Sequence record: KP869111
DNA from: Escherichia coli O157 typing phage 13
Length of the DNA: 64,000 bases
Direction: 5' to 3' (one strand)
Program-made: the position numbers and the translations under genes
In this document: positions 7,389 to 56,466 of the stretch, in pieces
How the letters are laid out: the number at the start of each line of letters is the position of its first letter
Numbering within the stretch: position 1 is the stretch's first letter
The notes under the pieces: generated by a model
Told to the model about the DNA's origin: nothing
The model's input: the letters and a program-made list of their open reading frames with translations, nothing else
The model's database searches: none

Positions 7389-7418
7389 ATTATACTCCAA
7401 CCATCCTTGGTTGTAAAC
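7389..7418 (-). promoter_or_regulatory. early-type promoter GTTTACA-N17-TATAAT with conserved spacer ACCAAGGATGGTTGGAG
   Basis: near-identical copies at 49400-49429 and 50419-50448. Confidence 0.55.
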
Positions 7419-14700: not shown

Positions 14701-14898
14701 ATGTTTAAACTTCCATCGTTAATCAACGCTATTAAAGGCAATAAAAAGAAAACTGCTATCGCTGCAATAGTTGTAGGTGGCATTATTTCATGGAACTTCG
14801 GGATTGCACCATTGTTAGTTGCCCATGGTATTATAGTTCCTTCTGTTCCATTGGATACTGTAGTTGATTTGGCCTTTGCTATTATAGGGCTTGTTTAA
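14701..14898 (+). CDS. small hydrophobic (membrane) protein, only plus-strand gene candidate
   Basis: 65 aa; strong SD TAAGGAG 6 nt before ATG; two hydrophobic segments; 3' end overlaps gp61 stop convergently. Confidence 0.5.
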   Translation: MFKLPSLINAIKGNKKKTAIAAIVVGGIISWNFGIAPLLVAHGIIVPSVPLDTVVDLAFAIIGLV

Positions 14899-15917
14899 AT
14901 CTTCGAATAACGAGATAATCTCATTTTAGCATGCAACCCACTTGAAATATTCTGTTTCATATATTCTAAAATTTCTTGTGGTGTTGCATTTTCTTTCATT
15001 ACCATATCATTCACATCCTTTGATCTCCATGGAGCTCGATCCCAGAACATGACACGTTCGCCTGCATCAACTAATCGCTTCATGCGAGCTATAGTATCTG
15101 GATGCCTAGGTTCATTATCCATTACCCATACCCGACGTTCTTTAAATGGTACCACATCTAAATCTATTGAGCCGCCTGTAATAGCGATTGCATTGGGTAT
15201 GAATAAACTATCAATAGGGCCTTCCATTACCCAGACGTCTCCTTCCTTAACACGTTCAACACCATAAATTTTTGTTGCAGACTCAAACGCTTTAATAGTG
15301 ATATATTTCTGAGGAGCATCTTTGCGAAGTGCACGTCCTTGAAATGACTCAGCCTTCCCGTCTTTATTAAAAATAGGAATCACTAAACGTGGTTCGGGAA
15401 TCTCTTTCTTATACGTACCAGGTTGAATCTTGTTGACCAATTTAGGCCATTCTAATGTGAACCATAATCTGTTCCACGATTCTTTAGGAATACACCGAGA
15501 CTTAACATATTTCACAATAGGATGCTCTTCAGGCAGCTTGTCCAGACGAGAACAAGACGGCAAAGAATTTATAGTCTTTTTCTCCGGTTCTGGTTTATGT
15601 TCAGGAACCTTTTCAATCTTTGGTTCCATTCTAGCTTTTTCTTTACGAACTTCCATTAGATATTCGCGATAAAGCTCTTCATCATACTCTTTTAAGTATC
15701 CAGAAATTGTATTGTGGTATTGACAGTTATAGCAATGCACATTACCTGGAGTACCACCGTAATACCATCCGCGAGCTTTCATTGCATCTGTCTGGGAGTC
15801 GCCACAAACTGGACAACGAAACGTTAATTTAAATGTGCTTGAATTATTGATTTGTCTAAAACGAGGGAGGTGAGAAAACGCACGATAAGCAAATTCATTA
15901 TCTATCCATTCAGCCAT
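14895..15917 (-). CDS. 61: DNA primase
   Basis: 340 aa; zinc-ribbon CPVCGDS...CYNC plus Toprim; matches T4 gp61. Confidence 0.85.
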   Translation of the reverse strand: MAEWIDNEFAYRAFSHLPRFRQINNSSTFKLTFRCPVCGDSQTDAMKARGWYYGGTPGNVHCYNCQYHNTISGYLKEYDEELYREYLMEVRKEKARMEPKIEKVPEHKPEPEKKTINSLPSCSRLDKLPEEHPIVKYVKSRCIPKESWNRLWFTLEWPKLVNKIQPGTYKKEIPEPRLVIPIFNKDGKAESFQGRALRKDAPQKYITIKAFESATKIYGVERVKEGDVWVMEGPIDSLFIPNAIAITGGSIDLDVVPFKERRVWVMDNEPRHPDTIARMKRLVDAGERVMFWDRAPWRSKDVNDMVMKENATPQEILEYMKQNISSGLHAKMRLSRYSKI

Positions 15918-16642: not shown

Positions 16643-17293
16643 TTAACCTCGATTCATAAATGCATTAAATATTTGGTCATCAACAGAAATTTCTAATTCG
16701 ACTTCAATTGCTTCGGCCTTTTCTTCAGGTGGTAATTCGTATCCACACACTACAATTTTTTCATCGATATCAAAATATACAGAAGCAATACGATTAATGT
16801 TATTTTCAGTTAAGTCCAAATCAACATCAACATCTTTTTGGCCTACACTTAGAGGATAACTAATACGGGTTATTTTATTATCTTTAACAAAGAGTCCACC
16901 AACATACTCTGTACTACGTTTGAAGTTTACACGTTTCCGAATTGAAAGATATGATACATCTTTACCGTGAGCTCGGCTCATAGGACATAATGAATAGCTA
17001 GAATAAGAGATGTCAAATCCTACACCTTCAATATGAGCCAACGCGTCATGATTAAACCAATTATAATCATATGCCAAATCCATTATATTGTAATATGTGA
17101 AAGGCACAGGATTAACATCATATGTTGTACCTTTAAAATCTGCCCAGGCAACGATTTCGTTATCTTTAACAATTACAAAAATTACACCAATATGGTATCC
17201 TTTATTATTTTCATTCGGCGTTATATTATAACATTGTGCATTAGGAAATTTACCATATTTAAATGGTGCGTTTTTGTGCATATAATAAATCAT
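16643..17293 (-). CDS. hypothetical protein
   Basis: Track M1 is GTG; ATG (MIYYMHK) follows the upstream stop (GAATAATATG). Confidence 0.5.
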   Translation of the reverse strand: MIYYMHKNAPFKYGKFPNAQCYNITPNENNKGYHIGVIFVIVKDNEIVAWADFKGTTYDVNPVPFTYYNIMDLAYDYNWFNHDALAHIEGVGFDISYSSYSLCPMSRAHGKDVSYLSIRKRVNFKRSTEYVGGLFVKDNKITRISYPLSVGQKDVDVDLDLTENNINRIASVYFDIDEKIVVCGYELPPEEKAEAIEVELEISVDDQIFNAFMNRG

Positions 17294-17294
17294 A

Positions 17295-17588
17295 TTATTC
17301 ACCTGTGATTTCGGTTACGATATCTTTGTTATCGAAATTAGGGTCACAATACAAAACATAGTTGTACTGCATGATACCGCCAGACTTAAGTTGTTCAACA
17401 ACTTTATTAACCATATTAGGACGGTCTCGTTTAGTGATGTTCATGATATCAGAGAAGATTTGTTGTTCAACATCTTCTTGATTTGCAGTCATTGACCACT
17501 CACAGAGGTCTTTATCATAACCTGCCGTAACTGGAGCCGGTGCACATGATACTGCAAGTAAGATTGCTGCCAATGATAACTTTTTCAT
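17295..17588 (-). CDS. putative lipoprotein
   Basis: 97 aa; signal peptide MKKLSLAAILLAVSC with lipobox-like LAVSC. Confidence 0.5.
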   Translation of the reverse strand: MKKLSLAAILLAVSCAPAPVTAGYDKDLCEWSMTANQEDVEQQIFSDIMNITKRDRPNMVNKVVEQLKSGGIMQYNYVLYCDPNFDNKDIVTEITGE

Positions 17589-17651
17589 TTTAACTCCTTA
17601 GTTGATTTGATAGGACTACTATACTATAGTCCATCTATAATGTAAACAAGT

Positions 17652-17900
17652 TTATTCTTTTTCGCGAATAATAATTACTTGTTGAGGCTGCTGAGCCGAT
17701 TTCTTTTCGGCAACGATAGACCAAATTAAAGTTCCAATCCAACCAATCATCGTCCAGTTAAAGAGTAAAGATACAAAGAAGATTGCTGTTGTGCTTTTTG
17801 TGCCACGAATAAGTGCGATTACCCAAGGCAACATGTAAATGATGATTGAACCAATACCTGCGATTAAAACTGCTACTGAACTAGCTACGAATAATTCCAT
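17652..17900 (-). CDS. small inner-membrane protein (2 predicted TM helices)
   Basis: 82 aa; two long hydrophobic stretches; own GTTTAC promoter at 17929-17958. Confidence 0.5.
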   Translation of the reverse strand: MELFVASSVAVLIAGIGSIIIYMLPWVIALIRGTKSTTAIFFVSLLFNWTMIGWIGTLIWSIVAEKKSAQQPQQVIIIREKE

Positions 17901-17928
17901 GTTAATTTCCTCTTGATTTGTTATGTTT

Positions 17929-17958
17929 ATAATATCTTGTTTTAACTTTGGCGTAAAC
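17929..17958 (-). promoter_or_regulatory. early-type promoter GTTTAC-N18-TATTAT
   Basis: seen on minus strand upstream of 17652..17900. Confidence 0.45.
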
Positions 17959-17961
17959 CAA

Positions 17962-18330
17962 TTAATTAAATTTGTTTAAACGTTCAATACACTGGACGTA
18001 GTTATTCGCGATTTGTTTCTGGGTAGGCTCTTTACCAGTTGTTTCAACATAACGAATGAATGCGATTTCAGTAGCCTGTAGACAATGTTCTTTAACGCGT
18101 TGTTCTTTTGACAATGCTACAGTATCAGAGTCACGATAACGTTGAGCATGGGCATCAGCTTGAATCATTCGATTACCTACAGTAACCGGGTCTTCCACTT
18201 CAACTTTAGGTTGGTCGTACTGTTTAACATTCGGATTGTAAATCAATTGGCCAACGTTATTAGGGATAAAGCCATGGGCACCACATCCGGTTAATCCAAA
18301 TACCATTGCTAAAGCGATTAATTTTTTCAT
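17962..18330 (-). CDS. putative lipoprotein
   Basis: 122 aa; signal peptide with lipobox LTGC; AGAGGAAA SD; GTTTAC promoter upstream. Confidence 0.55.
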   Translation of the reverse strand: MKKLIALAMVFGLTGCGAHGFIPNNVGQLIYNPNVKQYDQPKVEVEDPVTVGNRMIQADAHAQRYRDSDTVALSKEQRVKEHCLQATEIAFIRYVETTGKEPTQKQIANNYVQCIERLNKFN

Positions 18331-18401
18331 TTCAATTTCCTCTGTAGTTGATAGAAAGATAGTAACACAGTATGTGGGGCTTGTAAACAGTTATTTTAAA
18401 A

Positions 18402-18590
18402 TTATCGAAAATCTGCTTCGAAAACTTTCTCGTCATTAACAAATGCTTTAACTAATGCTTTGTTCACTTCAGCAAGTTGTACCGTAACCCACTCGATTTC
18501 TTCGCGATCACCTGATAACATGATATCTTTAGTGAACATCTCACCGCTTTTAAACCAACCGATAAAAGTAACTTTAGTTAATTTGCTCAT
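18402..18590 (-). CDS. hypothetical small protein
   Basis: Start at ATG (MSKLTKV...) overlapping upstream stop as ATGA. Confidence 0.4.
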   Translation of the reverse strand: MSKLTKVTFIGWFKSGEMFTKDIMLSGDREEIEWVTVQLAEVNKALVKAFVNDEKVFEADFR

Positions 18591-18904
18591 ATTTCCTCGC
18601 AAAATGCCCATTCAGCGTGATAAACTGTAGCGCCTTTAGTATCATTCATTTGAACTACATCTACCGGAGAAATTACTCGATAGAGACGTGGTTCACCTCC
18701 ATAAGAGCGTGCTGCTCGTCCTGCATAAATCTTTGCTAAACCGATATCTTCAGTAAAGAATACACGATCCAAGTTTTTCTTACGTCCAGTTTCAGACAGA
18801 ACTCCTGTTTCTTCAGGAGGACAAAGCATGTTTTCGATGTTAGCTGAACTACTTGAACCGTGATAAAAAATCTTAAATTCTGCTTTACAATCAATGGTTT
18901 TCAT
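18587..18904 (-). CDS. hypothetical protein
   Basis: 105 aa; SD GGAG lies in downstream arm of promoter hairpin. Confidence 0.5.
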   Translation of the reverse strand: MKTIDCKAEFKIFYHGSSSSANIENMLCPPEETGVLSETGRKKNLDRVFFTEDIGLAKIYAGRAARSYGGEPRLYRVISPVDVVQMNDTKGATVYHAEWAFCEEI

Positions 18905-18959: not shown

Positions 18960-19334
18960 TTAAAAACGTAATTTAGATATATCTGCGTTGATTTCGTTTT
19001 GGTTTGCGTCGTATGCAATTAAACGAACCGCTTTAGATGGGTCATTCAATGCATAGAAATGATGGAACATTGCTCGAACGATATCACCATTTACGAGTTC
19101 TACCTGGATAGGAGAACCTTTTTCGAGTTGGAAATGTTCATAAGCTTTGATGGTTCGCAGATAATCAAGTTTTTGATTTCCAGCTCCAACAATTTGTACG
19201 ATACGTTTGCCCATGTTTTCCATACGAGATACAATAGTTTTAGGAGCAAGAATAACGTAGGTTGCCAGTGGAGAAACTACTTCAACAGTTGTGTTTTCGG
19301 TGATTGCAGTAAAAATTGCTTGAGACATATTCAT
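18960..19334 (-). CDS. hypothetical protein
   Basis: 124 aa; preceded by GTTTAC promoter at about 19345-19395. Confidence 0.5.
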   Translation of the reverse strand: MNMSQAIFTAITENTTVEVVSPLATYVILAPKTIVSRMENMGKRIVQIVGAGNQKLDYLRTIKAYEHFQLEKGSPIQVELVNGDIVRAMFHHFYALNDPSKAVRLIAYDANQNEINADISKLRF

Positions 19335-19422: not shown

Positions 19423-20865
19423 TTAAAATTTTAACTCATTGGCTAAGCTATCTAGGTCAGCACGTGTTGCTTTGGCTTTACCTACGCGTTCCGTACGATT
19501 CACCTCTGCCTGACGCATCTGAGCACCTGCGTTTTCATTTACTGTGTTAGGTGTGTTCATGCCTTCTTGCTCAATCTCAATCCATTTCTGGTTGCCTTTA
19601 CGTACACCCATCAGGAATTTATTCCACTTATTCTTATCGCCGTATCGTGATTTGATTTGTTTGATAAGTTGTTGTTCAGCTTGTGCAAGTTCTTCGGTTT
19701 CAATTACAGCCAACATGAAATCCGCCGTTGCTGGTAAACCTGCTGATTCTGCAATATCACTCATGTTCATGTCTGAAGCATCCCATGCTGCACGTCCTAC
19801 TTGAGCTGCAGTCCATAGAACTGTTTCAGATTCTACTGCTAATGCACGAAGTTCTTCTGCGATAGCTTTAACTAATGTGTAGCTATTTTCAGTGTAAACT
19901 CTGATACGACAAGACCCACAAATACCTAAGTAATCAACCATGATTACAGATGGTACAAAGTTCTTCTTAAGTTTTAACTCATTAAGCAATGCACGAAATG
20001 TATTAGCATTAGCTCCACCAGTAGGATACTGTTTAACTACTAAACGTCCTAATGTTGTTTTTGAACGCCATTTTTCCATCTTGGCTTTATATTCAGCATA
20101 AGATACGTTACCATCATCAATATCATCAAGTGATACGTCAAGCATGTTTGCATCTATACGCTTAGCACAAACTTCTTCAGCCATTTCCATAGAAATATAA
20201 AGAACGTTATGACCTGTTTGAAGATAATCTGCAGCAAGTGAACAAAGGCCTAAAGATTTACCAACGTTAACACCGGCCATTAAAACGTTCAGTGTACCTG
20301 TTTCTGCACCACCTTTGGTGATTTTATTCAGAATGTTTAATTTGAACGGGACCTTACGTGCTTTATTTAGATAAGAAAGCCAGCGTGCTTCATAATCTTC
20401 CATCCAGTCATGGCCAACATAACTATCAAACGAAATTGAAAGTGCTTGACGCATAATATCAGGAATAGCTCCTACGTCAGGCATTTTCTTGTTACGTTGT
20501 TCTGGAGGTAGTTCAGCATTAGACTGAATCTCAATGATTTTGGATGTAGCATTATACATCGCTTTTTGCTGGACATATTTCTCAGTTTCTTTAACCAACC
20601 ATTCATGGTCTTCAGGAGTATCAGCCAATTTTTCAATTAGGTCTGAAGTTCCTTTATATTCGGCTTCAGTTAAAGAACTGTTATCTAAAGCCACCTTTAA
20701 CGCATTGATAGATGGCATTGCATTATATTCGTTAACGTGGCTCTTTATAATTTTAAAGACATTTTTTGCCGGTCCACGCTCAAAATACTCAGAATCCATA
20801 TAAGGCCAGACCTTAGAAAAATAAGCCTGGTCATATACGAGATGAGACAAAATAATTTCTACCAC
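19423..20865 (-). CDS. 41: replicative DNA helicase (DnaB-like)
   Basis: 480 aa; Walker A GVNVGKS; matches T4 gp41. Confidence 0.9.
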   Translation of the reverse strand: MVEIILSHLVYDQAYFSKVWPYMDSEYFERGPAKNVFKIIKSHVNEYNAMPSINALKVALDNSSLTEAEYKGTSDLIEKLADTPEDHEWLVKETEKYVQQKAMYNATSKIIEIQSNAELPPEQRNKKMPDVGAIPDIMRQALSISFDSYVGHDWMEDYEARWLSYLNKARKVPFKLNILNKITKGGAETGTLNVLMAGVNVGKSLGLCSLAADYLQTGHNVLYISMEMAEEVCAKRIDANMLDVSLDDIDDGNVSYAEYKAKMEKWRSKTTLGRLVVKQYPTGGANANTFRALLNELKLKKNFVPSVIMVDYLGICGSCRIRVYTENSYTLVKAIAEELRALAVESETVLWTAAQVGRAAWDASDMNMSDIAESAGLPATADFMLAVIETEELAQAEQQLIKQIKSRYGDKNKWNKFLMGVRKGNQKWIEIEQEGMNTPNTVNENAGAQMRQAEVNRTERVGKAKATRADLDSLANELKF

Positions 20866-24687: not shown

Positions 24688-24927
24688 TTATTTGAATTTC
24701 TTGACAATGTTGATATAACGTAAAGCTTCAGCATCGATACTTCCAAGAACACTATGAAGAAATGCATCAGCGTAGTATTCCAATTGAACAGGTTCTTTAA
24801 TCACTTTAGCCGCTTTAGTTTCAAACAGGCCCATCAGGGCCTTTTTAAGAATTTGTTCGTTGCTGTTAATTTTCATAGTCAAAATCTCTTCATTAAGTTG
24901 GTGGTTAAAAGTTTTTCTAGAAATCAT
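24688..24927 (-). CDS. small acidic protein (weak carrier-protein-like LGSID motif)
   Basis: 79-aa ORF; ATGA overlap with upstream gene. Confidence 0.4.
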   Translation of the reverse strand: MISRKTFNHQLNEEILTMKINSNEQILKKALMGLFETKAAKVIKEPVQLEYYADAFLHSVLGSIDAEALRYINIVKKFK

Positions 24928-26084
24928 TCCGGGTACCTCAAAGCGTCATCAGAGTTAGTTATATCAATAATAGATATAGAGTTTTCTGCTAACCCGTTTT
25001 TAGATAATTGACGTTTATAATATCTTTCACAATATGTACACGTCGTCCCGCAGATTTCATTAGCACAATCGAAATCTGGATGTCTGAACCACCTTTTTTC
25101 TAAAAAGCCATCTAACAAAGAGGTTTCAATATTTACTGTATGTGAAAACTCAGTTTCGTTTTCAAGAGTGAAAATAGTCTCTAAAGGCTTCCACAGTTCT
25201 AACAAATTACCTTCAAACTTTTCAGAAGCGTATGCTTCAAGAACTTTCAAAATGTAGTCTGTGCTACCTGTACGTCCTGAAACTTTGAATTGAGTGATAC
25301 CAATATCATTATAAAGTTTCAAATCTTGAGGACGAACAAAACGAGTTCTCAACCAGTTAAATGGGTCTGTATCACGAGCTTTAATACAGTGCTGCATAGG
25401 ATATCCGTTTAAGGATTTAGCATCATCAGCTGTAACATCAGTACTATGGAAAATATAGCAAGAGTCACGATAGCTACAATGTGTTGTATACCCTTTACCA
25501 GCATTAGAACAGAACTCATTTACAAGAACTTCAAATATTATATTGTTCTTATTGCAAAACTCTGCTGCACGCTTCAGGAAAGAAACTGAACGGTTCTTAT
25601 GAATTCCACAGCAGACCTTTTTGATATTATACTGGTCATGCAAGTATTTGATTTGAGTTACAGCATCGACATGTAGAATTGTTGAAACTTCAATCTCAAT
25701 GTCTTTATTGACTTCACGAACAATTTCCATAACAACAGGGTTAGCGATAGTAATACGCCATACGCCTATTGACCAAAGATACTGAACATAATCCTGAATA
25801 GCTTTCTTCTTCCACCCAACTAGTTCTCTTTTTGAACCAGGATTTATCGTGTTGAGTGTATAGTTAAAGCAAATACCTAATTCGTTACAACGTTTAACGT
25901 AATCTTCTAACATCTTTTTGTCAACGTCAGGAAGCCTAAAATCAGGTCTGGCTGCTACAAAAGCCATTTCTCTTGTAGAGCCGTATACTTCGTTTATCAA
26001 GCTATTAGGATAAGTTTTATTGAGCTCTACGATTTTATCAAGAAGAGCTAAATCAAAATTCGTTCCAATTTTAAAAGTATTCAT
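24924..26084 (-). CDS. Cys-rich protein of uncertain family (possible Fe-S enzyme; peptidase-U32-like or radical-SAM-like features)
   Basis: Track M1 is GTG; ATG at MNTFKIG; Cys clusters EFCSNAGKGYTTHCSYRDSC and C-terminal CANEICGTTCTYC (CxxxCxYC spacing). Confidence 0.45.
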   Translation of the reverse strand: MNTFKIGTNFDLALLDKIVELNKTYPNSLINEVYGSTREMAFVAARPDFRLPDVDKKMLEDYVKRCNELGICFNYTLNTINPGSKRELVGWKKKAIQDYVQYLWSIGVWRITIANPVVMEIVREVNKDIEIEVSTILHVDAVTQIKYLHDQYNIKKVCCGIHKNRSVSFLKRAAEFCNKNNIIFEVLVNEFCSNAGKGYTTHCSYRDSCYIFHSTDVTADDAKSLNGYPMQHCIKARDTDPFNWLRTRFVRPQDLKLYNDIGITQFKVSGRTGSTDYILKVLEAYASEKFEGNLLELWKPLETIFTLENETEFSHTVNIETSLLDGFLEKRWFRHPDFDCANEICGTTCTYCERYYKRQLSKNGLAENSISIIDITNSDDALRYPE

Positions 26085-26140
26085 TTTTTTGCATCTCACG
26101 TTAATTGATGCGATGGTTTTTGCAGGTCTTACTTAAATTA

Positions 26141-26527
26141 TTATAGATTCGGTTTATATGATTTAAATGTTTCGAATTCGCCTTTATTCATAAGAGCTTT
26201 GAATTCGTCAGGACGCATAGCTTTGTCGTCGATAATCCAATCATATACTGGTTTATGTGTTAGCAAATTATGGTACTTCAAACCAATGTTTTCCAAGTTC
26301 TGAATCAGACTTGGGAGAATGTCAATTGCTATACGACCAGGACCTACTGACTTCATACCGCGAGCAGTGTAAAGCGTTATGGTATGCCCTGCATCATACA
26401 GGGCATTAATAGCAGTCACCATTTCGACGTCTGGTTTGAAGTTCACGTAATCACGATTGTTATTCCACTCTGTTATACAATCATCGACATCAAAACAAAG
26501 ATTAAGCATGTTTTCTACACGGTGCAT
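26141..26527 (-). CDS. HAD-superfamily-like small phosphatase
   Basis: FDVDDC (motif I-like DxD), conserved K, IIDD (motif IV-like); start at ATG overlapping upstream stop. Confidence 0.5.
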   Translation of the reverse strand: MHRVENMLNLCFDVDDCITEWNNNRDYVNFKPDVEMVTAINALYDAGHTITLYTARGMKSVGPGRIAIDILPSLIQNLENIGLKYHNLLTHKPVYDWIIDDKAMRPDEFKALMNKGEFETFKSYKPNL

Positions 26528-28212
26528 TAGATTCGTTCCCATTGATGAGTGATATCGCCACCGATTGGACGATAAGAAACACCAGTTTCTTTATCAGTTA
26601 GTACCCATTTACCAGGATTTTTTGTAATCAGAGTAGCCGTTACAGGTTCTGCTACGTCATAACTAATAGAGCCGTCCTGAAGTACACGGCCCATGTTACG
26701 TAATTGCTTAGTCAGAAGTTCCATACCTTTATAATATGCGGCTACCGCTTTAAGTGGATTATTCTTGAAATAACCACCTAATGCAATCCAGATAATTGCT
26801 ACAGCCAAATGATGATACTCGTTAAACGAACTCATCTTTCCATATTTGTAAACTAATGGATTGATGTTAATAGTCACATTACAAGTTGTTTCGTCAATAG
26901 TAAACTGTCCCCAGGTCGGATTAGCGTTGAATTCATCATAACCTGAAACAGCATAAAGCACTTTAGCTTCATCATACAATTTTGGCCCGTAAATCTTGGT
27001 TTCGCCAAAATATCCACGAGGGTCGATAAACTTGACTTCGCCGTTATCAGTAATCATAGTATTACTGAAGTTCGGGTCACCGTGAATAACAGAGTACTGT
27101 CCCTGAGAACGGGTATGATAACGAATAAGATGTTCTAAAGCTTGCTTCAGCATTGGCTTCAGACGTCCAATCTTAGTGTAGTTCACGTGTGTGATTTTAC
27201 CAAATGAATCAATCAATGGCTGAATGCTTTCACAACGATCAATAACTTTCGTATAGAACTCTTTAGTGAAATCACGGCGAACAGTTTCAGGACTTACAAA
27301 ATAAGTGTCTGTGCTGAATTTCAGTGCATCTAAAATTGCATCAACAATTTGTGGACGAGCAAGACTTGATTTGGATTTAATATATTCAAATGCTGGCTTA
27401 CCTTTAATACGTTCCATTTCAAAATTATTTTCATTTACCGAAACTAACTGAGGAACTGAATCTGATTTCACTTTCAAATACCATGAAATCTCATCTTTTT
27501 GAAGAGCTCGACCTTGTTCGGTTAACGCGAATTTAGTTACAGTTTCTTCGCCAATTTCAACTGCATTAAAACTACGATTAAGTTCACGAACTTCATGAGC
27601 TTTTTCAAGTTTAGGCATATCACCTAAATCAATTAGATTCATAAGCTCTGATTTATTGAATGCACTGCCGTAAAGGAATTCTACGAAATCACGTCCTTTG
27701 CAGTATTCATGAATTTCCTCATCAGTAGAACCCATGTAGAATTCCCAGTCTTTGAACTGATAAATTCCTACAACATTACCGCCTGTTGAACCTACGTTAG
27801 TGATATTTTCACCATCGAAATTATATCGACATTCATCACCCTTAACATAGATTGCGTTAACATTCCAAGACCATGAACCAAAATCAGGAATAATATCACA
27901 CCAGTTAACAATTACGTTATGGCCATCTAAATCTTTGTATAATTTAGCAAGAGCATAAGCAGAACCATACGCTTCATCAACTGTACGAATAGTCACATTG
28001 AACCCTTCTTGCTCGCAATAAGCTCGAACAGTTTCAGCAAATTTTGAATGAACTACTACAATAATTTCATCTGCGCCAAGGTCAGAATAAATTGTATACA
28101 AATTGCTCAGAATAGTGTCTTGTTTATAGTTAACAAGAACTTTTGGAATATGATGCGTTATTGGATACAAACGAGTTGCCAGTCCAGCACCAAGAATAAC
28201 AGCTTTTTTCAT
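26527..28212 (-). CDS. bifunctional sugar-1-phosphate nucleotidyltransferase (N-term) / small-molecule kinase of APH-choline-kinase fold (C-term)
   Basis: 561 aa; N-terminal ILGAGLATRLYPIT (RmlA/GlmU-like); C-terminal HGDPNFSNTMI...IDP (Brenner kinase motif); GAGGA SD. Confidence 0.65.
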   Translation of the reverse strand: MKKAVILGAGLATRLYPITHHIPKVLVNYKQDTILSNLYTIYSDLGADEIIVVVHSKFAETVRAYCEQEGFNVTIRTVDEAYGSAYALAKLYKDLDGHNVIVNWCDIIPDFGSWSWNVNAIYVKGDECRYNFDGENITNVGSTGGNVVGIYQFKDWEFYMGSTDEEIHEYCKGRDFVEFLYGSAFNKSELMNLIDLGDMPKLEKAHEVRELNRSFNAVEIGEETVTKFALTEQGRALQKDEISWYLKVKSDSVPQLVSVNENNFEMERIKGKPAFEYIKSKSSLARPQIVDAILDALKFSTDTYFVSPETVRRDFTKEFYTKVIDRCESIQPLIDSFGKITHVNYTKIGRLKPMLKQALEHLIRYHTRSQGQYSVIHGDPNFSNTMITDNGEVKFIDPRGYFGETKIYGPKLYDEAKVLYAVSGYDEFNANPTWGQFTIDETTCNVTININPLVYKYGKMSSFNEYHHLAVAIIWIALGGYFKNNPLKAVAAYYKGMELLTKQLRNMGRVLQDGSISYDVAEPVTATLITKNPGKWVLTDKETGVSYRPIGGDITHQWERI

Positions 28213-28253
28213 GTTGTGGTCCTCATTGGTAAGTAGGTGTATTGTACACTATT

Positions 28254-28397
28254 CTAGTTAAAGCATTCATACTTTGCTTGTAGTCCAATCATAATCCATC
28301 CAATTACAAGTGTTGGAATCATTACTGGAGCCGTTAAGCTCCAGTAGATAGTCATGACAAGCATCAATAGTAAAAGTCCTATTGTTATTGCTTTCAT
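28254..28397 (-). CDS. small hydrophobic membrane protein (47 aa)
   Basis: Own translation MKAITIGLLLLMLVMTIYW...; ATG overlaps SIS-gene stop (ATGA); not in ORF track. Confidence 0.4.
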   Translation of the reverse strand: MKAITIGLLLLMLVMTIYWSLTAPVMIPTLVIGWIMIGLQAKYECFN

Positions 28398-29029
28398 TGT
28401 TCGCCTCGTAACATGGCACCTAGTGCACCGCCTGGATGGAACTTAAGAAAGTCATTAGAGGTAAATCCACGTTCAGACGAAAGGTTGATAGCAAACGTAT
28501 CGATAAGCGCTAACAACAATGTAGTGGACATAGTCGGAGCCAGAGAATTCTCATCAACCTCTACCGCGATGCCTGTACAGAAAGAGTAATCAAAAAGGGC
28601 TTCATTTTCTTGCGGAATGTCTGGGTTACAATGCAACAGAATCTGTTTGACATTTGGACGAATCATTTTAAGATGCTTAGCCACGCCTATCATTTCTTCA
28701 GTCTTACCAGAACGACTAATATGAATCAACACATCATTAGGCGCAATGAATCCTGCATCACCGTGAGAATAATGCCCAGTGTTCAAGTACATACTCGGGA
28801 TACCGAGTGAAGCAAATGTCTCAGAAGCTTTAGTTGCAATATTAGCATTCTTACCAACACCTGTAATAATTACTCGGCTTTCATAATTACTAAGTCCAGG
28901 GCGTCGAAGAGTTTCTAGAATAGCATTATAACGAGCAGGGTTTTGACTAATTACTTTGGCCATAGCGGCCAAAGAAGAAGCTTGTTTTATGATTGCGTCA
29001 ATAGCGATAGTAATAGGAGTAGTTTTCAT
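28394..29029 (-). CDS. SIS-domain sugar-phosphate isomerase (arabinose-5-phosphate isomerase KpsF/GutQ-like, no CBS domains)
   Basis: 211 aa; ITGVGKNANIATK...HGDAGFIAPNDVLIHISRSGKTEE...APTMSTT...HPGGALG match the API/SIS signature. Confidence 0.7.
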   Translation of the reverse strand: MKTTPITIAIDAIIKQASSLAAMAKVISQNPARYNAILETLRRPGLSNYESRVIITGVGKNANIATKASETFASLGIPSMYLNTGHYSHGDAGFIAPNDVLIHISRSGKTEEMIGVAKHLKMIRPNVKQILLHCNPDIPQENEALFDYSFCTGIAVEVDENSLAPTMSTTLLLALIDTFAINLSSERGFTSNDFLKFHPGGALGAMLRGEQ

Positions 29030-29069
29030 ATTTCTCTCATTTAATTAGTTTACCGTCCATGACATTATA

Positions 29070-49370: not shown

Positions 49371-49399
49371 AATATTTTCCTCTCGTTAAGATAGATTCA

Positions 49400-49429
49400 T
49401 TATACTCCAACCATCCTTGGTTGTAAACT
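49400..49429 (-). promoter_or_regulatory. early-type promoter, conserved copy (GTTTACAACCAAGGATGGTTGGAGTATAAT)
   Basis: identical core to 7389-7418. Confidence 0.55.
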
Positions 49430-56095: not shown

Positions 56096-56259
56096 TTTAC
56101 CATACTCGTTTCAATAAGATTCACTATGCCGTTTACCATGTTATAAGTAAACATCGGATAATTGTATTGTACTACAACATAAGCGATAAGCAAAAGTTTC
56201 ATTTTGTTCTCCGTTTGTTTTGGTAGGACTACTATAACATAGTCCTACCAAGATGTAAA

Positions 56260-56466
56260 CTACCGATTGTGTTTTAAATGTTGATAAAGTTCTTCAACTT
56301 GTTTTGGGTCTAAAACAATTAGGTCATTTTCTTGGCGAAGATAAATCCATCCCTTATCCCCAGGACCATTTTTACAAAACATTGCCACCATATCATCATC
56401 TTCAGCGCTTTCAGGTAAAAGTTCAAGCACACCGTCTTCAGATTTTCTAGTATAATCGTAAAGCAT
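56260..56466 (-). CDS. hypothetical small acidic protein
   Basis: Start at ATG (MLYDYTRK) with GAGGA SD. Confidence 0.4.
   Translation of the reverse strand: MLYDYTRKSEDGVLELLPESAEDDDMVAMFCKNGPGDKGWIYLRQENDLIVLDPKQVEELYQHLKHNR

Follow-up and report, generated by a model that had tools for sequence, protein, structure and literature searches.

Imm and Sp (Spackle, gp61.3) of phage T4 are the closest described counterparts of the proteins considered here. Lu and Henning reportedly found in 1989 that T4 imm, carried alone on a plasmid, brings about exclusion. Spackle has been characterised as a protein. N-terminal sequencing of T4 gp61.3 from the periplasm showed that the first 22 residues had been removed and that the chain starts at Gly23 (PMC7650644), and crystals were obtained of this 75-residue form, Gly23-Glu97, which inhibits gp5 lysozyme (PMC7677548). 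The two proteins form a 1:1 complex in which the lysozyme is inhibited (PMC7650644, PMC7677548), and the residues of T4 Sp that contact gp5 have been named (PMC7677548). For Imm, reviewers summarise the findings of Lu and Henning as those of an inner-membrane protein that prevents DNA transfer (PMC6832632). In T4 the genes occupy two places, with the orders 43 - imm.1 - imm - 42 and 41 - dmd - 61.4 - sp - 61.2 - 61.1 - 61. The gene imm.1, which in T4 naming is ORF 42.2, lies immediately upstream of imm (ORF 42.1).

We analysed a window of 64,000 nucleotides from Escherichia coli O157 typing phage 13 (KP869111). Over the 6.5 kb compared, its sequence matches at 100% identity that of E. coli O157 typing phages 3 and 6 (NC_041863, KP869101), which belong to the Straboviridae, subfamily Tevenvirinae, genus Mosigvirus (the RB69-like group), and about 150 more genomes cover at least 80% of the same 6.5-kb query at 95-99% identity. 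Positions 17,295 to 18,330 very probably hold the Mosigvirus orthologues of T4 sp, imm and imm.1, which would form one contiguous, early-expressed superinfection-exclusion cluster. The locus is an ordinary one, widely present, and its sp and imm genes have already been annotated.

Gene content and putative early promoters

The initial annotation had placed here three genes between those for primase and helicase, each with its own early promoter; it had described the second product as a two-helix membrane protein and had proposed an exclusion function of the Imm or Sp type. The ORF listing reproduces the coordinates exactly, with three consecutive ORFs filling the interval, all on the minus strand like every other gene in this part of the window (Table 1). 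The functional proposal is likewise borne out by homology, which assigns ORF1 to Spackle, ORF2 to Imm and ORF3 to Imm.1, and hydropathy gives ORF2 the two hydrophobic stretches that the description called for. Since all three proteins exceed the Pfam gathering scores, a chance origin of the features of the cluster was dismissed.

Table 1. Genes and putative promoter motifs of the sp-imm-imm.1 interval and its flanks, in window coordinates
Feature	Coordinates	Strand	Product	Features or matches
Primase gene 61	14895-15917	-
sp (gene 61.3 orthologue), ORF1	17295-17588	-	97 aa	Pfam, phrog, PDB and T4 match
Promoter motif before sp	17618-17647	-		GTTTACA, spacer, TATAGT; consensus match
imm, ORF2	17652-17900	-	82 aa	Pfam, phrog and T4 match
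Promoter motif before imm	17929-17958	-		GTTTACG, spacer, TATTAT; consensus match
imm.1 homologue, ORF3	17962-18330	-	122 aa	DUF5481 / phrog_1754 and T4 match
Promoter motif before imm.1	18359-18388	-		consensus match; homologous to T4 imm.1 promoter
Helicase gene 41	19423-20865	-

ORF1 matches the T4_Spackle profile (PF25676) with 145 bits against a cut-off of 27 (E = 1.1e-42, profile positions 1-96 of 96), as well as phrog_1586, 'spackle periplasmic' (2.9e-42), and the solved structures of T4 Spackle (PDB 6x6o, 1.4e-39; 7cn6, 1.1e-33). Its product shares 66% identity with T4 Sp and keeps both disulfide cysteines, C29 and C81, as well as the gp5-contact residues S32-A35, Q37 and N76. An alignment of Sp homologues shows no variation at C29, C81, S32, M33, A35 or N76 and hardly any at T34. 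The putative cleavage site between VTA and G is also present, with P19 and A22 invariant across the homologues. The mature protein is predicted to consist of G23-E97, and in the periplasm it would inhibit the gp5 lysozyme of the tail spike.

ORF2 matches Imm_superinfect (PF14373) with 57.2 bits (cut-off 27.9, E = 1.5e-15) and phrog_1039, 'immunity to superinfection' (9.9e-31). It aligns with T4 Imm over the full length, with 54 of 83 positions identical (65%, E = 3e-37). The hydrophobic stretches span about residues 3-31 and 38-63 (hydropathy windows 1-34 and 40-59), R32 and K35 lie between them, and a charged C-terminal tail follows (EKKSAQQPQQVIIIREKE). The protein would reside in the inner membrane and block DNA transfer from an incoming phage. 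We also considered ORF2 as the orthologue of 61.4, which occupies the corresponding slot in T4, and rejected this; T4 61.4 is hydrophilic, 85 aa long and assigned to other phrogs.

ORF3 gave 37.3 bits against DUF5481 (PF17578; cut-off 27, E = 3.7e-9) and an E-value of 5.1e-29 against phrog_1754, to which T4 Imm.1 and gp46 of Citrobacter phage Merlin also belong. With 31-32% identity to T4 Imm.1 (E = 1e-18), it is, as judged from its sequence, a diverged homologue of that protein. Neither the anti-phage defence models of PADLOC-DB, at E <= 0.01, nor NCBIfam gave a match for Sp, Imm or Imm.1. RefSeq already carries the product names 'spackle periplasmic' for sp and 'immunity to superinfection' for imm, and lists imm.1 as 'hypothetical protein'; the two RefSeq names, and the identity of the first gene as sp at its canonical 41-61 position, had been absent from the initial annotation.

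Early expression is suggested by three putative promoters of the T4 early type. Each upstream gap (63, 61 and 71 nt) contains a GTTTAC-N16-19-TANNNT site, and the three promoter motifs lie within one mismatch of the published T4-type consensus TTTACW-N17-TAYWAT. The window as a whole has 23 sites of the GTTTAC-N16-19-TANNNT form, 21 of them on the coding strand, compared with 3.7 expected in shuffled sequence. With one consensus match per gene and a motif enriched to this degree, an early promoter for each gene is a fair reading. The putative sp promoter contains a hairpin, GGACTA...TAGTCC, that embraces the -10 box (RNA fold z = -2.1), and similar motifs occur in the T4 dmd promoter and at position 56231 of the window. 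Upstream of imm.1 the DNA aligns with that of T4, with CTGTTTACAAG at -35, TACTAT at -10 and the leader CTATCAACTAC. A Shine-Dalgarno sequence, AAGGAG or AGAGGAAA, precedes each of sp, imm and imm.1.

Imm.1 and the position of the imm.1-imm pair

The gene order in the typing phage is 41 - two small ORFs - dmd - imm.1 - imm - sp - 61.2 (AdfA) - ... - 61. The absence of an imm homologue from the canonical position between genes 42 and 43 had been remarked on from the sequence, and the comparison accounts for it. Each genome, including this one, gives a single imm match, which here lies elsewhere, and the 43-42 interval is filled by sugar-modification genes resembling kpsF, glmU and phosphoheptose isomerase genes. 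The order 43 - imm.1 - imm - 42 is found in T4 (Tequatrovirus), in Salmonella phage S16 (Gelderlandvirus) and in two uncultured, metagenomic lineages (L016 and L018), and in Citrobacter phage Merlin (Moonvirus; gp46 matches phrog_1754 at 2.5e-48) it differs by one extra ORF between 43 and imm.1. The sp gene lies in the 41-61 interval even where its product is only 46-53% identical. Given the order 43-imm.1-imm-42 elsewhere and the fixed place of sp at 41-61, the Mosigvirus order is derived. Comparison shows that sp kept its place while imm.1 and imm were transposed, as a unit, into the space between dmd and sp, where T4 has 61.4. The putative promoter of imm.1 moved along with the pair, as its upstream region aligns with that of T4.

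Between imm.1 and imm lie 11 nt in T4 and 61 nt here, and in four further lineages the gap measures 7-32 nt; the spacing of 7-32 nt in the canonical arrangement implies an operon. In a phage collection, the numbers of Imm.1 and Imm matches agree for the Mosigvirus type (154 records at at least 95% identity) and for the Tequatrovirus type (502 records), and the two genes are adjacent in all four of the records that appear in both listings. The coupling is not obligatory: CC31 (Karamvirus) has imm.1 with no adjacent imm, and in P896 (Gaprivervirus) and AnYang (Dhakavirus) imm follows straight after 43, without imm.1. Because the pair behaves as a mobile two-gene cassette with its own promoter, it is reasonable to consider Imm.1 a candidate exclusion protein. 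We suggest that promoter/stem-loop cassettes of the PeSL type may have moved imm.1-imm; no diagnostic footprint of such an agent was found.

Several features of the Imm.1 family bear on where its members reside. ORF3 fits the PROSITE-type lipobox rule (ALAMVFGLTGC, with Cys16 as the candidate acylated residue and Gly at +2). The lipobox cysteine is present in eight of ten aligned family sequences and the other two carry a signal of the AHA-cleaved type, and we therefore regard Imm.1 as a periplasmic protein that is usually lipid-anchored; the two homologues without the cysteine indicate that the anchor itself is dispensable for the family. C83 and C114 are invariant in all ten sequences. In E. 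coli, lipoproteins that lack Asp at +2 are sorted by the Lol system to the outer membrane. No member of the family has Asp at +2, and by this rule, which is the sole basis for the assignment, Imm.1 is probably tethered to the outer membrane. AlphaFold predicts a disordered tether at about residues 17-47 followed by a C-terminal helical domain, in which helices 75-98 and 104-120 reach pLDDT values of about 90, with lower confidence for helix 48-70.

Beyond DUF5481 and phrog_1754 the family searches matched nothing, and the PDB gave no relative of Imm.1 by fold or by sequence. Spackle was considered as a relative of the mature Imm.1 domain, both being small, helical and disulfide-bonded, and was rejected; in a profile comparison the alignment is confined to the signal peptides. 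An exhaustive HMMER search of 1.84 billion sequences returned only eight representatives at 50% identity, a word-index search returned three proteins, and a scan of viral contigs returned two near-identical loci only. The eight representatives among 1.84 billion mark the family as narrow, and the literature searched contains no mention of DUF5481.

Imm.1 has also diverged at about twice the rate of its neighbours, being 31% identical to its T4 counterpart as against 54-85% for Dmd, Imm, Sp, AdfA, gp61 and gp41, and this pattern is repeated across lineages. A published gene-content comparison missed the RB69-group Imm.1 and gave it as absent (PMC5885020). The 31%-identical orthologue found here indicates that the RB69 group does have the protein and differs from T4 only in how far it has diverged.

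Proposed roles of the three proteins

The functions given here are those of the T4 proteins, carried over at an identity of 65-66% for Sp and Imm and of only 31% for Imm.1. Under the exclusion reading, host RNA polymerase would transcribe the cluster right after infection from the sigma-70-type early promoters. Sp would be exported by the Sec pathway and cut after Ala22, and in the periplasm it would bind the lysozyme domain of tail-spike gp5 from a later phage and stop the digestion of peptidoglycan. Imm would insert into the inner membrane, so that incoming DNA is not transferred. Imm.1 would be lipidated at Cys16 and, because Asp is missing at +2, would probably be delivered by Lol sorting to the inner leaflet of the outer membrane, where a flexible tether of about 30 residues would hold its small, disulfide-bonded helical domain in the periplasm. 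For Imm.1 our best guess is that it contributes to the same envelope barrier, either as an accessory or in a way specific to its lineage.

A different emphasis, which we consider possible though doubtful, is that the cluster mainly guards the envelope of the infected cell, providing resistance to lysis from without and helping to maintain lysis inhibition. In favour of this, sp and rIV are one gene, and a review describes mutants in sp and imm in which lysis inhibition collapses prematurely and which resist lysis from without less well (PMC6832632). These phenotypes do not set envelope protection apart from exclusion, however, as inhibition of the gp5 lysozyme and a block of DNA entry yield both of them (PMC6832632, PMC7677548).

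Imm.1 could instead act independently of DNA-entry exclusion, as an outer-membrane lipoprotein of the Llp or Cor kind that has only its promoter region in common with imm. Llp of phage T5 and Cor of phages phi80 and N15 are outer-membrane lipoproteins that block receptors. An Imm.1 of this kind would bind a host outer-membrane receptor from the periplasmic side and so block adsorption, or would protect progeny from inactivation by cell debris. The lipobox, the lack of Asp at +2 and the small tethered domain are all consistent with such a role, and a divergence from T4 about twice that of the neighbouring genes would fit a protein that tracks lineage-specific partners. The separate occurrence of Imm.1 in CC31 and of imm in P896 and AnYang points the same way. 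Against these points, Imm.1 matches only DUF5481 and phrog_1754, and no solved structure or fold. Moreover, imm.1 lies 7-32 nt upstream of imm in five lineages, implying an operon, the two genes relocated together in Mosigvirus, and two members of the family are soluble and not lipid-anchored. Altogether we judge an independent role of this type unlikely, although it is the chief alternative for Imm.1.

The reading of Sp as soluble has to be set against its signal peptide. The initial annotation had counted two lipoproteins in the cluster. Both lipobox motifs are indeed present, since ORF1 also fits the PROSITE-type rule (SLAAILLAVSC, Cys15, seven residues upstream of the putative cleavage site between VTA and G), but the classification of ORF1 as a lipoprotein was not confirmed, T4 Sp being cleaved after residue 22. 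Purified T4 Sp starts at Gly23, which corresponds to cleavage of the signal-peptidase-I type, and Sp is therefore treated as a soluble periplasmic protein and not as a lipoprotein. By the published evidence ORF3 is likely the sole lipoprotein of the cluster.

The lipobox of Spackle is nevertheless strictly conserved, and the soluble-periplasmic picture leaves it unaccounted for. Across 17 Sp homologues, with identities as low as 47%, Ser14 and Cys15 never vary, although the hydrophobic core of the signal peptide otherwise does. The codons for Ser14 are TCA, TCT, AGT and AGC, and those for Cys15 are TGT and TGC; the use of both TCN and AGY codons for the one residue, and of both TGT and TGC for the other, shows that selection here acts on the protein. 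In the profile comparison the Sp signal peptide is also in register with the lipoprotein signal of Imm.1.

One larger reading takes up these observations: a three-layer envelope barrier that includes the overlooked Imm.1 as a periplasmic lipoprotein tethered to the outer membrane, together with a Spackle that is at first, or in part, a membrane-anchored lipoprotein. We hold this to be improbable. If it were true, Imm.1, usually co-transcribed with imm, would either work together with Imm or exclude phages in a lineage-specific way, and its fast divergence would help to set which T-even relatives are excluded (for example RB69 versus T4).

The proposal that Spackle is partly or transiently acylated at Cys15, with the soluble Gly23 form as a second product or a parallel fraction, can draw on the points above and on the consideration that a blocked, membrane-bound Sp would be invisible to Edman sequencing of osmotic-shock protein, but it seems unlikely: T4 Sp released from the periplasm begins at residue 23 (PMC7650644), the signal-peptidase-I residues Pro19 and Ala22 are just as invariant as Ser14-Cys15, the soluble form of 75 residues shows full activity in vitro, and Sp lipidation is not evident from the titles or abstracts of the papers found on spackle and lipoproteins.

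Comparison with known systems

The likeness of Imm.1 to T5 Llp and to Cor of phi80 and N15 is one of analogy only. Llp and Cor are, as Imm.1 is predicted to be, small phage-encoded lipoproteins with early or prophage expression that exclude other phages at the envelope; they differ in that no sequence or fold similarity between Imm.1 and Llp or Cor was detected.

The comparison with T4 is closer for each of the three proteins. Like T4 Spackle (gp61.3, PF25676; PDB 6x6o, 6xc0, 6xc1, 7cn6 and 7cn7), ORF1 encodes 97 aa, with the same putative cleavage site between Ala22 and Gly23, the same C29-C81 pair and the same contact residues, and in both phages the gene lies in the 41-61 interval next to 61.2. 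The signal peptides, in contrast, are identical at only 10 of 22 residues, the upstream neighbour is 61.4 in T4 and imm here, and the sp promoter here has a hairpin resembling that of the T4 dmd promoter.

Imm.1 shares with its T4 counterpart (ORF 42.2) the lipobox signal, the motifs YNPNVK and AQxYRxSD, the two invariant C-terminal cysteines and a place directly upstream of imm with a homologous promoter, whereas an extra pair of cysteines in T4 (C33 and C44) is absent here.

Imm resembles T4 Imm in its two hydrophobic stretches, a basic loop RGxKS and a charged tail ending in VIIIREKE. The difference between the phages lies in the setting of the gene, which is found between genes 43 and 42 in T4, 11 nt from imm.1, and between dmd and sp here, 61 nt from imm.1 and with a promoter-like site of its own. 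These comparisons confirm the presence of the classical T4 exclusion genes in RB69-type phages and show where imm is located in Mosigvirus.

Invariant residues in the Spackle signal peptide

We examined the signal peptide of Spackle across 17 homologues, with identity down to 47%, and found no variation at Ser14-Cys15, a lipobox-like pair. Both TCN and AGY codons are used for Ser14 among these homologues, which indicates, at the level of codon comparison, that the pair is under selection as protein. This invariance is left unaccounted for by the published picture of Sp as a soluble protein starting at Gly23.

Distribution of imm.1 and imm

The Imm.1 orthologue of the window is 31-32% identical and occupies a locus different from the canonical one. 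A gene-content comparison of the T4 and RB69 groups listed Imm.1 as absent from the latter (PMC5885020); it was probably overlooked there because its sequence has diverged. Coupling of imm.1 to imm is not strict across lineages: the Enterobacter phage CC31 (Karamvirus) has imm.1 without imm beside it, and in Gaprivervirus P896 and Dhakavirus AnYang gene 43 is followed directly by imm, with imm.1 absent. Whereas imm.1-imm fills the 43-42 interval of T4, that of the window carries kpsF-like, GlmU-like, phosphoheptose-isomerase-like and peptidase genes. We take these to be a sugar (arabinose-type) modification pathway for the hydroxymethylcytosine DNA of RB69-like phages.

Companion genes in the 41-61 interval

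Judged by homology, the exclusion genes are accompanied within this interval by two putative counter-defence genes, dmd and a T4 61.2 orthologue matching the anti-DarT factor A family. Two further ORFs, of 105 and 124 aa (phrog_2110 and phrog_10668, both without a functional annotation), occupy a position that in T4 is without genes. Searches of Pfam, NCBIfam, PADLOC and PDB gave no match for either. Both ORFs come with a GTTTAC-type promoter motif of their own, and the 105-aa ORF overlaps the start of dmd by 4 nt.

Locations of the features discussed
Feature	Position	Strand	Remark
Promoter-like GTTTACAACCAAGGATGGTTGGAGTATAAT	7389-7418; 49399-49428	minus	30 nt
T4 61.2 orthologue	16643-17293	minus	directly downstream of sp; Pfam AdfA, E = 1e-119
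sp codons 14-15	17544-17549	minus	Ser14-Cys15
Palindrome around -10 box	17606-17625	minus	sp promoter
imm.1	17962-18330	minus	
dmd	18402-18590		
105-aa ORF	18587-18904	minus	between 41 and dmd
124-aa ORF	18960-19334	minus	between 41 and dmd
43-42 interval genes	about 24690-29030	minus	kpsF-like: arabinose-5-phosphate isomerase
Palindrome-bearing promoter variant	56231-56260	minus	
Palindrome-bearing promoter variant	6555-6612 of L003 (T4 dmd region)		T4 dmd promoter
imm.1 of CC31	1762-2202 of L015 (CC31 locus)		between 43 and 42

Early-promoter and promoter-like sequences with palindromes or repeats

In a recurrent early-promoter variant, a palindrome (GGACTAT..TATAGTAGTCC) flanks the -10 box on both sides; the sp promoter shares it with the T4 dmd promoter and with a site near 56231. 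For the gap upstream of sp, RNA folding gave z = -2.1. The two copies of GTTTACAACCAAGGATGGTTGGAGTATAAT are identical, are separated by 42 kb, and contain a small inverted repeat within the spacer. This pair is reminiscent of the promoter/stem-loop (PeSL) cassettes, proposed agents of gene shuffling in T4-type phages.
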